Virus record (IMG/VR): IMGVR_UViG_3300045988_010419
Reading direction: 5' to 3' (one strand)
Origin: a virus
DNA length: 6,147 nt
Part shown: in pieces, positions 3,138 through 6,147 of the stretch
Layout of the letters: each line of letters begins with the position of its first letter
Numbering within the stretch: the stretch's first letter is position 1
The notes under the pieces: model-generated
Databases searched by the model: none
Told to the model about the DNA's origin: nothing
What the model saw: the letters and a program-made list of their open reading frames with translations, nothing else
Program-made: the position numbers and the translations under genes

Positions 3138-3530
3138 TTACACCCCCTTTCTGTATTTTTTCCCGGTTCGTACATCAAAGTGCACCCAGGATTTATATAC
3201 GATAATGCCGCATCCATCCGGTACGATTTCATTTAGCTTGTTGGCAAGTTCTTTTGGACTTATTCCATCTACCCGGATATCTGCTGCCATACCGCGCATA
3301 TGATAGCTGTATTTTGCTCCGTTGCATTTTTTGTTCCATTCTGGTGTTCTGTATCCGCTGGTTATAATGACCGGTTTCCCTAGCTTATGTCTTAAGATAT
3401 CCAGGATGGTGTATAGGTAGTCGTCTATGAATATTACCTGACTACCGTCTTTGCAAGCAAATTCCCTTACCCTAAAGTGTCTTGCTAGCTTTACGTTTCC
3501 ATCTGTGTCCATGATATAGCATTTAAGCAT
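3138..3530 (-). CDS. Zinc D-Ala-D-Ala carboxypeptidase-fold cell-wall peptidase (Peptidase_M15_3 / YcbK-DUF882-like), 130 aa; probable lysis enzyme
   Basis: The motifs are in canonical order: FRVREFACKDG, ITSGYRTPEWN, SYHMRGMAAD (H-x6-D zinc ligands), WVHFD (third ligand). The ATG at 3530 has AGGAGGG 9-10 nt upstream. The track start at 3539 is a TTG immediately abutting that SD and is less likely. Confidence 0.88.
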   Translation of the reverse strand: MLKCYIMDTDGNVKLARHFRVREFACKDGSQVIFIDDYLYTILDILRHKLGKPVIITSGYRTPEWNKKCNGAKYSYHMRGMAADIRVDGISPKELANKLNEIVPDGCGIIVYKSWVHFDVRTGKKYRKGV

Positions 3531-3535
3531 TTTTG

Positions 3536-3721
3536 TCAACCCTCCTTTTCTGTGAAGTACAGCTTTATTTCTTCAATCTTGTACAGGCTGTAGATTCCTT
3601 TGTGTTCTTCTGCGTATTCCTTTGCTCTCTTTTTTGCGTTTTTCGGTTCATCATTGATTTTTAATACTGTGGTCATGCTGTCGTCGTCGTTCCAACTTCT
3701 CAGTTCATATCTGTGTTTCAT
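3536..3721 (-). CDS. Hypothetical protein, 61 aa, hydrophilic; first gene downstream of the intergenic promoter
   Basis: The ATG at 3721 is preceded by AGAAAGGAAGGTG (a near-perfect anti-SD complement) plus a 6-nt spacer. The track start at 3730 is the GTG inside that SD. The stop TGA lies 5 nt upstream of the ATG I call for the peptidase gene and overlaps the alternative TTG start at 3539. Confidence 0.65.
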   Translation of the reverse strand: MKHRYELRSWNDDDSMTTVLKINDEPKNAKKRAKEYAEEHKGIYSLYKIEEIKLYFTEKEG

Positions 3722-3748
3722 TTTTAGCACCTTCCTTTCTGTGATTAT

Positions 3749-3777
3749 ATTTTATCATATTTTTTAAAAAAAGTCAA
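3749..3777 (-). promoter_or_regulatory. Sigma70/SigA-type promoter: -35 TTGACT (3777-3772), 17-nt spacer, extended -10 TGATAAAAT (-10 hexamer 3754-3749)
   Basis: Minus strand reads aacTTGACTttttttaaaaaataTGaTAAAATataatcacagaaaggaaggtg. It has an A/T-rich UP-like flank and would give a leader of about 20 nt to the ATG at 3721. Confidence 0.6.
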
Positions 3778-3908
3778 GTTTTTTTTAGAATTTTATTGAT
3801 ATATCAGTAGCCTGTTTTGCTCCTTTGTTTTGAATGGCGCTTTAGCGCCTTGCCGTGCGTAGCGTATGCGGAGCTCGGCTAATCCATTCATTATGAGCGC
3901 TGTGCGCG

Positions 3909-4021
3909 TTTTCAACACTTTCAACACTTTCAACAGGTTTTCAACAAAATGTTGCACAATGATTTCCGTCATTTTGACGGACTTTCAACATTTCAACAAT
4001 TTTTCAACAAAACTTTCAATA
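3909..4021 (+). repeat. Iteron array: 7 exact plus 1 degenerate copies of (T)TTCAACA in two clusters of four flanking a 6-bp hairpin
   Basis: TTCAACA occurs at 3911, 3920, 3929, 3940 and at 3984, 3992, 4003, with TTCAATA at 4015. All copies share one orientation, with spacings of 9, 9, 11 and 8, 11, 12 nt. The central hairpin is tccgtc-atttt-gacgga at 3965-3981. Confidence 0.9.
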
Positions 4022-4117
4022 TTGTTTTTTGCTTTTTATTTACGCTTTAACGTTAAATTTTAGTACTTATCAACTTTTCCACATTGCCTACTACTACTCC
4101 TACAACAAGTTAATATA

Positions 4118-4168
4118 ATATACGCGTGTGTGCGCACGCGCGTTTGCGCGCGTGCGCGCGCGCGCGCA
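4118..4168. repeat. CG-rich alternating purine-pyrimidine tract (26 nt + TT + 24 nt) with internal 11-bp GC hairpin
   Basis: 4118-4143 atatacgcgtgtgtgcgcacgcgcgt and 4145-4168 tgcgcgcgtgcgcgcgcgcgcgca alternate Pu/Py without a break. (GC)7 runs 4154-4167. 4132-4142 pairs perfectly with 4147-4157 around loop TTTG. Confidence 0.9.
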
Positions 4169-4199
4169 AAGCGGCAGCCCCAAGATTGGGGCGTGACGC

Positions 4200-4227
4200 A
4201 AGGGGTTGACTTTTAAGTCAACCCCTT
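4200..4227. other. 12-bp perfect stem-loop (aaggggttgact-ttta-agtcaacccctt)
   Basis: Base-by-base pairing of 4200-4211 with 4216-4227 around a 4-nt loop. A further 5-bp GC hairpin lies at 4177-4192 (gcccc-aagatt-ggggc). Confidence 0.85.
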
Positions 4228-4267
4228 TGAATCACTGAATAGACTGATACATGGAGTCCATAAATGA

Positions 4268-4309
4268 CACCTAGCCAAGTACCTTACTTGATAGGTACTT
4301 GGCTAGGTG
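4268..4309 (-). terminator. 17-bp perfect stem / 8-nt loop hairpin starting 14 nt after the VP4 stop; candidate transcription terminator and/or ssDNA origin structure
   Basis: 4268-4284 cacctagccaagtacct pairs with 4293-4309 aggtacttggctaggtg. On the coding strand it is followed by TCATTTAT, a modest U-tract. The structure is certain but the function is inferred. Confidence 0.5.
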
Positions 4310-4323
4310 ACACCATGACACTG

Positions 4324-5343
4324 TTAAAGTGTCCCTCTCTTCTTCATCTGCTTCTTTATCACTCTCTCTTTCGTTTTACACTGTTCTGCAAAGTCTGCAT
4401 TTTCGTACTTTAGTCGGTTTTCTGCGATTGCTGCCGCTTGCCTGTTCTGTTTAATTCTCCACAATCTTTGTGGGTTTTCTGCTTCCATCATTTTTTCATA
4501 ATAACGTGGAATTTGTGCTTGTTTGCCGTTTGTGCATTGGATGTAGCCTTGTCTCCAGATTTCTGCTTTGTGCTCTTGATAATAGTGGTCTCCTAAGCCC
4601 GGCTTGAGGCTCATACATGCAAAAGGTTTTTGTTGCCCTAGTTCATAGTACTTGTTTGCTTTTTGACCGTCTATCTCATACATTTTTTTTGTGACGTATC
4701 CTGCAACATATCTATACGTTTCTGGTACTGCTTGCGCTATTTGGATTTGACCCATGCCCCATAGGTTTTCTAGCCATTTACTTGTGAAATATCCGTTGTG
4801 TTGTATCTTGTATAGGTGCTCTAGGTCTGTTGGTTGCCATCCGTATAGAATCATGTGATAGTGCGGTCTTGCTGTCTGTTCTCCGTACTCTCCCGCTACA
4901 AAATAGCGTAATTTGCCCCTATAAGCCTTTCTGAGACGTTTTAAGAACTTTTGAACGTCAGTATACAGTAACGTTTGGACGCTTTCAGGGCGCTTCTCTC
5001 CCGGTTTCCAGACGTATTGTACTTTTCGCATGATTTCACCTGTGTTTACTATCATGCCTGGTACATGGTCATCATCATAAGTTAACGTGATAAACCAAAC
5101 TTCTTCTTTTGGATAGTCTCGTGCTTCTAATTCTATTCGTGTTGTCCAGTCCTCCCTTTGTCTGATTCTGCATCCGATGCATTGCCCGCATGGTATCAAC
5201 ATGACGTTTTTTCGGTACATCAAATCTTCATATTTGAGCTGTTTTCCCGATATTTCAGAAAAACGGGCGAGTGAATACACCCGCCCGCTTATGCTTTTGT
5301 CTTCCGGGTTGTACAGCCTTATTAATGGCTTGTAACAACTCAT
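4324..5343 (-). CDS. VP4: VP4 replication initiation protein (HUH rolling-circle endonuclease), 339 aa
   Basis: Contains a Cys cluster IPCGQCIGCRIRQREDW, motif 1 FITLTYDD, HUH motif RPHYHMILYGW, and the catalytic Tyr motif YRYVAGYVTKK. SD AGGTGAT lies 8 nt upstream. An ATGA overlap with the VP2 stop is at 5340-5343. Confidence 0.93.
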   Translation of the reverse strand: MSCYKPLIRLYNPEDKSISGRVYSLARFSEISGKQLKYEDLMYRKNVMLIPCGQCIGCRIRQREDWTTRIELEARDYPKEEVWFITLTYDDDHVPGMIVNTGEIMRKVQYVWKPGEKRPESVQTLLYTDVQKFLKRLRKAYRGKLRYFVAGEYGEQTARPHYHMILYGWQPTDLEHLYKIQHNGYFTSKWLENLWGMGQIQIAQAVPETYRYVAGYVTKKMYEIDGQKANKYYELGQQKPFACMSLKPGLGDHYYQEHKAEIWRQGYIQCTNGKQAQIPRYYEKMMEAENPQRLWRIKQNRQAAAIAENRLKYENADFAEQCKTKERVIKKQMKKRGTL

Positions 5344-6147
5344 TTCAAATAATCACCTGGCTTTCGTTTTTCTCCGTAGCTTCCTGTTTTGTCCTGTGGC
5401 TTTATGCTTCTGCCTTGTTCTGCACCTTTGCCTTTTTCTGTCTTTGCTGTTGCATCTTTAATGGCTTCGCTTGTGTCGTTTCCGACTTTGGTTAGTGTTT
5501 TCATCAGTCCGTAGGGTGTCATTTGCGTTGTGCTTAGCATCTGCTGCCAGCTTTGTGCCGCATTGTACCAGTCGCTTTTGCTCCAGCTTGAGCTTGAGTA
5601 TGCATTTGGTACAAATCCACCGCTTCGGCTTACTCCTAGTGCACTACTGCTTGCAAGTCCCATACTTGCACCGCTGATTGTGCCGGCGCTTCCACCCGGT
5701 GTGCTCGCTCCCCCATTTGAGAATGCTAGGATAGGGTTAAGCCCCGCTTTTCGCATGTCTTCAACTGCACGCTGGTATGCTGTGCTTGACATGTGCTCTT
5801 GCCATTCACGGTTCGCTAGTGCTTCTGCACTGTTGTAGTTCATTGCTACGCTGTTTTCAATGTGGTTGTATACGCCTTGCATGATTGCTTGTAAGGTGTT
5901 GTAACCCATCTGTTTAAGCATACTTTGACTGTTGTATTTACCTTGCATGGCAGCCTCTTGCCCTTGGTATGCGTATGCTTGCTTTAGCCAGTCGTTTACC
6001 TGTTGAATGTTTGTGCCTGCTTGACTTCCACTTTCAGAGTGTCCGCCGCCTTGGCTTACGCTTCCACCTTGGCTTTGGCTGTTTCCTGTCTGACCCCATC
6101 CGCCTAAAGCTCCAGTGACGTTTTTTGCTGCTCCTGCGATTGTTCCG
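5340..6147 (-). CDS. VP2: VP2 minor capsid / DNA pilot protein, 3' segment (runs off the window edge; the true start is the ATG at 161 across the circular junction; total 289 aa)
   Basis: Carries the characteristic motif NREWQEHMSSTAYQRAVEDMRKAGLNPILAF. Hand translation from 6146 down to 5949 gives GTIAGAAKNVTGALGGWGQTGNSQSQGGSVSQGGGHSESGSQAGTNIQQVNDWLKQAYAYQGQEAA with no stop, in frame with the track ORF that starts at M 5948. Confidence 0.88.
   Translation of the reverse strand, partial: GTIAGAAKNVTGALGGWGQTGNSQSQGGSVSQGGGHSESGSQAGTNIQQVNDWLKQAYAYQGQEAAMQGKYNSQSMLKQMGYNTLQAIMQGVYNHIENSVAMNYNSAEALANREWQEHMSSTAYQRAVEDMRKAGLNPILAFSNGGASTPGGSAGTISGASMGLASSSALGVSRSGGFVPNAYSSSSWSKSDWYNAAQSWQQMLSTTQMTPYGLMKTLTKVGNDTSEAIKDATAKTEKGKGAEQGRSIKPQDKTGSYGEKRKPGDYLK
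6049..6147. repeat. Terminal redundancy copy 2 (identical to 1-99)
   Basis: Same 99-nt string as positions 1-99. It lies inside the VP2 coding frame, so it is coding sequence seen twice rather than a structural repeat. Confidence 0.95.

Follow-up and report, generated by a model that had tools for sequence, protein, structure and literature searches.

An alternating CG tract conserved in a clade of gut gokushoviruses as a probable strand-specific hairpin of the replication origin region

We analyzed a stretch of viral DNA of 6147 nt (IMG/VR record IMGVR_UViG_3300045988_010419; the whole of it is called the window), and in particular a CG-rich tract of alternating purines and pyrimidines at positions 4118-4168, ATATACGCGTGTGTGCGCACGCGCGTTTGCGCGCGTGCGCGCGCGCGCGCA. 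Because the two ends of the window share a 99-nt direct repeat, it represents a circular gokushovirus genome of 6048 nt. All identified genes lie on the minus strand. Searches of Pfam assigned the major capsid protein (200-1882; Phage_F, E 4e-135), the scaffold protein (1879-2337; Chlamy_scaf), ORF5 (2270-2509; Phage_ORF5), an M15 peptidase (3138-3539; Peptidase_M15_3), and the replication protein Rep, or VP4 (4324-5343; REP_ORF2-G2P). An open reading frame (ORF) at 5340-5948 had no Pfam match, and the matching stretch in relatives is annotated as VP2. The closest GenBank relatives, at about 85% identity, are gokushoviruses of the human, pig, and monkey gut, for example Gokushovirus WZ-2015a and Human gut gokushovirus. 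The tract is located in the single large non-coding region (3731-4323), which extends from the end of VP4 to the promoter of the next gene and is divided into two unlike halves. The left half (3800-4125) is conserved in sequence yet unstructured (z about -1.6 on both strands), and thus looks like protein-binding sites in duplex DNA. The right half (4095-4325) is extremely structured (z -12.9 on the plus strand and -10.3 on the minus strand) and consists of an array of four hairpins, the first of which is formed by the CG tract. The tract is best filed as an origin-region single-strand hairpin of a rolling-circle replicon, unusual in being built of alternating CG.

Uninterrupted alternation runs from 4118 to 4143 (26 nt) and again from 4145 to 4168 (24 nt), and includes (GC)7 at 4154-4167. 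The original prediction, made from the sequence of the window, had described these two runs correctly but had separated them by TT; the alternation breaks at the T4144-T4145 step, so that one base, T4144, lies between them. The longest alternation elsewhere in the window is 14 nt. In dinucleotide-preserving shuffles (n = 1000), the longest run averaged 13.1 nt and reached at least 24 nt once; two such adjacent runs are far beyond chance. As had also been claimed, the tract is saturated with palindromes, and most of the CGCG/GCGC-type sites of the genome fall inside it (10 of 16 CGCG, 11 of 24 GCGC, all six GCGCGC, and the sole ACGCGT and the sole TGCGCA). The flank described as AT-only is likewise present: positions 4110-4122, TTAATATAATATA, contain only A and T, and the DNA to the left is AT-rich (31.5% GC over 3901-4100). 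The alternation begins, at 4118, inside this stretch, which lies between a trio repeat (described below) and the tract, and resembles a DNA unwinding element. An A/T-only run of 13-20 nt is found at the same position in every relative read.

To place the tract among relatives, we used 46 GenBank phage records with a homologous non-coding region, and 80 of the 233 IMG/VR contigs matched by Rep; tract-bearing loci were counted among examined loci with recognisable anchors, and a tract had to span at least 36 nt. A tract was present at the equivalent position in 71 related loci, representing 52 distinct sequences. In an alignment with six GenBank relatives, all six had a CG-rich alternating tract of differing sequence at this position, flanked by near-invariant DNA on the left and by a conserved hairpin on the right. 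A tract is present, too, in four divergent relatives sampled from human faeces, human blood, and rhesus faeces, and tract-bearing lineages differ by about 15-25% in nucleotide sequence. The common architecture comprises two alternating arms of about 20-28 nt each, narrowly distributed in length, around a centre of T, TT, TAT, or TAC (mostly T-rich) or around a bare phase break without spacer. This central break was present in nearly all listed variants; L003 had no break at all.

The GenBank genomes with a tract came from France and China (human, pig, and monkey faeces) and from Spain (human blood), in addition to many IMG/VR samples. We ruled out an assembly artefact because an equivalent two-armed tract recurs at the same place in 71 related loci, drawn from independent datasets (human, pig, and monkey); equivalent tracts, which the original prediction had proposed to look for, do exist in related genomes, and the tract is not unique to this contig. 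It is a real, conserved feature of one gut microvirus clade, and its retention in these loci across independent studies indicates selection, as had been proposed. A single locus lacked it (L086, IMGVR_UViG_3300045988_000102): the anchors there are 51 nt apart and enclose a 5-bp remnant hairpin, AGCGT-TTTTGC-ACGCT. This locus could be a natural deletion variant, or else a defective genome or a collapsed assembly. In two further relatives, L105 (about 345-390) and L106 (about 493-540), the two arms are near-identical direct repeats, e.g. CGCGTGCGCATGTGCGCGCG twice, suggesting turnover by duplication or slippage; the two arms nonetheless form a stem, with many G.T wobbles.

The tract is self-complementary and folds, as the original prediction had it. 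DNA folding of the plus strand yielded a continuous 20-bp stem (-28.9 kcal/mol, with three G.T pairs) between a 5' arm at 4123-4142, an arm found in the 71 related loci, and a 3' arm at 4147-4166, which takes in the (GC)7 repeat and covaries with the 5' arm in related tracts of type A. The loop, TTTG at 4143-4146, contains the phase break, and this centre varies among relatives. The predicted 11-bp hairpin (4132-4142/4147-4157) corresponds to the Watson-Crick core of this helix and falls short of its full extent. We analyzed covariation in 15 distinct type-A variants of the same length (20 pairs). Changes on both sides (C-G to T-A or G-C to A-T) were detected in 5 of the 20 pairs versus 2.0 +/- 1.0 in shuffles, a count attained in 1 of 500 shuffles. 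Sliding the partner by +/-2 columns, which is the proper control because it preserves alternation, gave 0-1 doubly changed pairs. With G.T counted, 99% of the cells in these variants were paired, and there were 41 G.T cells versus 3 A.C cells. Over 50 variants, A was opposite T in 97 columns and opposite C in 33, while T accounts for only about one quarter of the pyrimidines; T was opposite G in 172 columns.

The pairing is specific to one strand. In 51 of 52 variants, the plus strand gave the more stable fold of the two. When the variants were permuted with alternation, composition, and spacer held and only the positions of T and A moved, the plus strand was more stable than its permutations (-25.7 versus -22.7 kcal/mol; mean z -1.23, with 35% of variants below -1.64), and the minus strand was not optimised (-20.3 versus -20.2 kcal/mol; mean z -0.04). 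In the four divergent relatives, the plus strand formed an unbroken helix of 18-20 bp (z -2.5 to -3.9), and the minus strand folded weakly; only in L107 (z -2.2) did it surpass shuffled sequence. By these comparisons the plus strand alone looks selected to fold, and what the comparative data show is apparently selection for a strand-specific hairpin of about 20 bp, not for a Z-DNA switch.

The original prediction had put its emphasis on such a switch, and the comparative evidence does not support this emphasis: the signal is one of hairpin pairing on one strand, with compensation in register. Z-DNA formation by the tract in the replicative form is physically plausible. The tract has the uninterrupted, CG-rich purine-pyrimidine alternation of at least about 12-16 bp by which Z-DNA-forming sequences are recognised. 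A rough thermodynamic estimate, using published energy parameters, placed the B-Z transition at a superhelical density (sigma) of about -0.035 to -0.038 and cruciform extrusion at -0.036 to -0.048; the B-Z transition would relax 4.4-8.7 of the approximately 35 turns in a 6-kb circle. In a duplex-form switch, the tract would flip to Z-DNA or to a cruciform in the supercoiled replicative form and absorb up to about one quarter of the supercoils, tuning the melting of the AT-rich/DnaA module on its left or of the nick-site hairpin on its right. Besides these estimates, the strict maintenance of alternation in essentially every variant and the position of the tract next to the A/T-only stretch and the DnaA-trio module are in favor of this idea.

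However, Z-DNA needs no complementarity between the arms and a cruciform acts on both strands, so neither predicts the observed pattern, in which compensation occurs only in the hairpin register and the minus-strand hairpin is unoptimised and almost always the weaker one. If alternation alone were constrained, as expected for Z-DNA, the constraint would be equal on both strands; instead we found register-specific compensation and strand-specific optimisation. The central phase break would cost a Z-Z junction but suits a hairpin loop, and in some lineages other hairpins intervene between the tract and the AT stretch. The alternation itself is already explained by a hairpin constraint acting on an ancestral (CG)n: a stem derived from (CG)n tolerates C-to-T changes (as G.T pairs) and paired transitions but no transversions, so that alternation persists automatically. 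Strict alternation is most simply the legacy of a (CG)n origin. The tract shares with the Z-DNA-forming (CG)n 'flipons' of supercoiled plasmids a CG-rich alternation of 24-26 bp and an estimated transition within natural supercoiling, but differs from them in having two arms with a phase break that covary on one strand only. Similarly, the IR-II cruciform of pT181-family origins lies within the rolling-circle origin of a supercoiled circle and is formed by a GC-rich inverted repeat, but there the nick site is in the loop, whereas here the loop is unconserved, the nick-site-like motif is in a separate hairpin, and the minus arm is unoptimised. We therefore regard a duplex-form switch as unlikely.

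The conserved hairpin to the right of the tract bears on its function. This hairpin (4268-4309, plus strand, antisense to the genes; loop TACTTGATA) has a 17-bp stem that is maintained with compensatory changes, and begins about 100 nt beyond the end of the CG stem at 4166. Its loop motif, TACTTGAT(A), resembles CAACTTG^ATA, the cleavage site of phiX174 gene A, and is a putative nick site for Rep. Chp2, SpV4, and many other genomes each have a single long hairpin with CTTGAT or CTTGTT in its loop. Their Rep proteins are only about 30% identical to that of the window, and one such hairpin per genome at this low identity argues for a conserved nick site. Equivalent loop hairpins are located at about 2904-2941 in Chp2 (L087), 512-548 in SpV4 (L088), and 2715-2751 in the chicken microvirus mg7_10 (L093). 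Of 72 environmental gokushovirus genomes, the coding strand bore the hairpin in 39 and the anticoding strand in none, and it is on the coding strand also in Chp2 and SpV4. In the clade of the window and in mg7_10, the anticoding strand bears it instead, with the same GGTGACA after it. Since the plus strand bears the nick-site-like hairpin, we infer that this strand is displaced during rolling-circle replication and packaged; if the hairpin is the nick site, the virion strand would be antisense to the genes. Displacement, and probably packaging, of the antisense strand would likewise be expected in mg7_10. For the window, independent support for this polarity comes from the one-strand character of the CG hairpin.

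Between the CG hairpin and the nick-site-like hairpin, the array contains a second hairpin, GCGGCAGCCCCAAGATTGGGGCGTGACGC (4171-4199), and a third, AAGGGGTTGAC-TTTT-..GTCAACCCCTT (4200-4227), both on the plus strand. Both are variable modules; the second is found in only some relatives, and a plus-strand T run follows the third in some relatives. The whole interval 4167-4267, like its counterpart in L001-L086, is a mosaic, and which hairpin modules it contains depends on the relative (e.g. GCAGCCCC..GGGGCG, AAGGGGTTGAC..GTCAACCCCTT, GGCGCTTGTGAGCTTGCGAACAATAGCGCC, and CTACTTGATAGACTGAATAGACTGATACATGG), and several of these modules repeat a CTTGATAG motif outside the main hairpin. AT skew was tried as a marker of the packaged strand and rejected: it separated the first 13 genomes perfectly but did not separate a larger sample. 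Genomes with the motif on the coding strand had AT skews from -0.29 to +0.24.

Taken together, we favor the reading that the tract is an origin-region single-strand hairpin, probably a landmark for starting complementary-strand synthesis, to which we assign a probability of roughly 45%. A complementary-strand priming signal was one of the options listed in the original prediction, and it has survived as the preferred one. The element would be a GC-rich inverted repeat of about 45-50 nt composed of alternating CG, TG, and CA dinucleotides, and would be retained because the plus single strand folds it into a hairpin of about 20 bp with a loop of 3-4 nt that is usually T-rich. As a duplex landmark on the viral strand, this hairpin would most likely resist coating by single-stranded DNA-binding protein, and mark or enable the start of the complementary strand. 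If the TACTTGATA hairpin is the nick site, the tract would lie on the displaced strand just upstream of it. Rolling-circle plasmids have their single-strand origin (sso) in a like position, just 5' of the nick site and a short distance upstream of it on the displaced strand. Of the two to four stable hairpins in the array upstream of the nick site, the CG hairpin is the sole member kept in nearly every relative. The hairpins in microvirus intergenic regions have been assumed to serve complementary-strand initiation (PMC9865509).

With the sso of Firmicute rolling-circle plasmids, the tract shares a strand-specific, highly structured, non-coding character. Like an sso or a primosome assembly site, it has a stable structure specific to one strand and base pairs kept by compensatory change. 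The primosome assembly site of phiX174 and the oric hairpins of G4 are likewise stable, non-coding hairpins on the viral strand in which structure outweighs sequence; they differ from the tract in that their sequences are unrelated to it, whereas the tract is alternating CG, rich in G.T pairs, located beside DnaA-box-like repeats, and upstream of the nick-site hairpin. Membership in the ssoA class was rejected because its motifs are not conserved: RSB and CS-6 (TAGCGT) are inconsistent here, and the TAGCGT at 3859-3864 varies among relatives.

Several observations weigh against the priming role, which we infer from structure, position, and these analogies. Microviridae are described as positive-sense viruses, in which case the poorly folding minus strand would be the one packaged. 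L086, with its 5-bp remnant, suggests that the tract may be dispensable, unless that genome is defective. When the tract alone is shuffled with its dinucleotides preserved, the product is nearly as stable (z -1.6), so that much of the stability of the hairpin stems from composition. That G.T cells outnumber A.C cells might be due in part to strand-biased mutation instead of selection; the polarised spectrum of rare alleles in VP4 lacked the expected C-to-T bias. Finally, the tract variants contained no conserved loop or stem motif for a priming protein to read, and the ssoA motifs RSB and CS-6 were not consistently present in tract or loop.

We then focused on the block to the left of the tract. 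The original prediction had placed the tract beside origin-like repeats, and these repeats are DnaA-box-like: eight copies of TT(T)TCAACA, a DnaA-box variant, lie in the same orientation on the plus strand at 3899-4030, and relatives have 7-11 copies. They are followed by a candidate oriC-like basal unwinding module (4067-4102, plus strand), recognised by alignment to the B. subtilis basal-unwinding-system scaffold, by shuffles, and by conservation. The module comprises two tandem DnaA-box-like sites, TTATCAACT (4067-4075; two mismatches) and TTTTCCACA (4075-4083; one mismatch), the 4-nt spacer TTGC (4084-4087), and five trios, CTA CTA CTA CTC CTA (4088-4102), which read 3'-GAT-5' on the minus strand (GAT GAT GAT GAG GAT). 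The plus strand of 4064-4104, which is the module with three flanking bases before it and CA after it, reads ACTTATCAACTTTTCCACATTGCCTACTACTACTCCTACAA, and is identical without gaps at 31 of 41 positions to the B. subtilis oriC scaffold ACTTATCCACAAATCCACAGGCCCTACTATTACTTCTACTA (PMC8287927, supplement). The two also agree exactly in geometry: a 9-mer box overlaps a second box, and a 4-nt spacer leads into the CTA repeats, with a spacing of 12, the value tabulated for Bacillus, Listeria, Staphylococcus, and Clostridium (PMC8287927). The search described in that paper called for a DnaA box with at most two mismatches, separated by no more than 16 bp from three or more NAN trios (consensus GAT), all of which are found in 4067-4102. 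A stricter pattern, which we defined post hoc, occurred in 3 of 2000 genome shuffles and in none of nine other gokushoviruses.

Across relatives, trios 1-3 and 5 are invariant, and the spacer is fixed in length and variable in sequence, as would be expected of such an element. TTTTCAACA is a listed species DnaA-box motif (PMC8287927, supplement); the tables of the same paper include TTTTCAACA and TTATCAACT among the DnaA-box variants of Chlamydia, Porphyromonas, and Mycoplasma, and give TTATCAACA as the first box in Clostridium acetobutylicum. One relative, L107, has a perfect TTATCCACA. After the trios come CAACAAG, the A/T-only stretch, and then directly the CG tract. The layout of 4067-4122 matches the basal unwinding system of Firmicute oriC, a likeness that belongs to this neighboring block (boxes, 4-nt spacer, GAT trios, spacing of 12, AT-rich DNA) and not to the tract. 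The differences are that the block lies in a 6-kb phage with a rolling-circle Rep, and that a CG hairpin follows the module, an arrangement undescribed for chromosomal origins in the cited papers. Module and repeats together hint that the host may be a clostridium or another Firmicute, and that a rolling-circle phage may use host DnaA; our full-text literature searches found no paper linking DnaA to microvirus origins. A protein-coding basis for the conservation of the left block was rejected, as no ORF is kept across relatives.

Because the tract abuts the AT-rich end of the DnaA-box/DnaA-trio module, it might have a second role, to bound or lock a DnaA-opened bubble in the replicative form. 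Taken as the main function, this would make the tract the boundary of a phage-borne DnaA origin: the GC-rich tract would halt the bubble after the trios and the AT stretch melt or, alternatively, the plus-strand hairpin would keep the region open for Rep at the nick-site loop after the helicase has passed along the plus strand. The left module matches the Firmicute geometry and is conserved, and the order of DnaA module, AT stretch, hairpin array, and nick site is the same in all relatives. Moreover, the trio strand is the minus strand, leaving free the plus strand, whose hairpin is the optimised one. Nevertheless, the searches gave no precedent for DnaA use by a microvirus, the adjacency of tract and AT stretch is not strict, and the mechanism depends on putative DnaA binding and on several hypothetical steps. 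We consider this function improbable. The same grade of doubt attaches to the broader proposal that the clade has a functioning unwinding module of the Firmicute chromosomal-origin type and that its virions contain the antisense strand. In such a hybrid origin, host DnaA would melt the trios and the AT stretch, the host helicase on the plus strand would traverse the CG tract, and the plus-strand hairpin would then lock the region open, giving Rep access to the nick-site loop. In such a combined DnaA/rolling-circle origin the tract would act mechanically, and possibly also sense supercoiling through Z-DNA.

It is quite improbable that the tract has no function and is a slippage-prone CG/TG microsatellite palindrome kept by mutation pressure. 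Its length and arrangement vary by lineage, its arms are direct repeats in L105 and L106, and one genome lacks it, all of which would suit this explanation; but it occurs in 71 loci of lineages about 15-25% apart, its arm lengths are narrowly distributed, and it shows compensatory changes and strand-specific optimisation. Palindromic CpG-rich tracts are, in addition, normally prone to deletion, so that persistence needs explaining. Least probable is a transcription terminator or insulator that ends the minus-strand VP4 transcript and shields the origin from read-through: a consensus scan called 4141-4122 (minus strand) terminator-like, with the tail ATATTATATT, and the tract is downstream of VP4, but the plus strand has no T run, the mRNA-sense minus strand combines a mixed A/T tail with the poorly paired hairpin in an unconserved arrangement, many relatives have no T-rich run after the tract on that strand, and the conserved 17-bp hairpin right after VP4 is a better candidate.

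Further assignments were considered. A known RNA family was discarded because all Rfam matches were sub-threshold (the best at 26 bits versus a gathering threshold of 90) and were to low-complexity miRNA models. A tRNA search found none. A plus-strand RNA bearing the hairpin is conceivable, but no conserved plus-strand promoter was found. By eye, the AT stretch and the start of the tract weakly resemble one arm of a dif site, but a prophage or XerCD/dif site was dropped because 185,579 genomes, queried with either Rep or a conserved 22-mer, yielded no related prophage, and because the AT stretch varies among relatives.

At the left end of the non-coding region, a near-consensus sigma-70-like promoter on the minus strand (3749-3777; TTGACT-17-TGnTAAAAT) is predicted to serve the downstream genes. 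Next come AAAGGAAG and then an ORF of 64 amino acids with a GTG start (3536-3730), upstream of the M15 peptidase gene. Positions 3820-3900 are nearly invariant across relatives and unexplained (GGCGCTTTAGCGCC TTGCCGTGCG..GCGGAGCTCGGCTAATCCATTC..AGCGCTGTGCGCG); a 22-mer from this segment had no match in 185,579 bacterial genomes. The coding strand of the window is very A-rich (A 37%, T 18.6%; 55% A at the four-fold degenerate sites of VP4), and its AT skew of +0.33 exceeds that of all 39 genomes with the origin motif on the coding strand (maximum +0.24).

Full-text literature searches for gokushoviruses yielded no account of Z-DNA tracts, DnaA boxes, or origin hairpins; the tract, the DnaA-like module, and the orientation of the origin hairpin are absent from the literature searched. 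More surprising than the tract is what surrounds it: a block that copies the unwinding module of Firmicute chromosomes, and a putative nick site that falls on the antisense strand. Gokushoviruses rank among the commonest phages of the human gut, yet next to nothing is known of the way their replication is initiated and controlled. This region offers parts that can be tested: a putative nick-site hairpin conserved across the subfamily, a strand-specific CG hairpin that nearly all members of the clade have, and a block resembling a Firmicute origin in layout. The tract itself is a natural test case for distinguishing selection for a hairpin from selection for Z-DNA. If the DnaA-like module works, it would indicate the host group, probably Clostridia, and represent a new use of a host initiator by a rolling-circle phage. 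If the reading of the nick-site orientation is true, some microviruses would package the antisense strand, and strand-specific virome data and genome annotations would have to be read differently.

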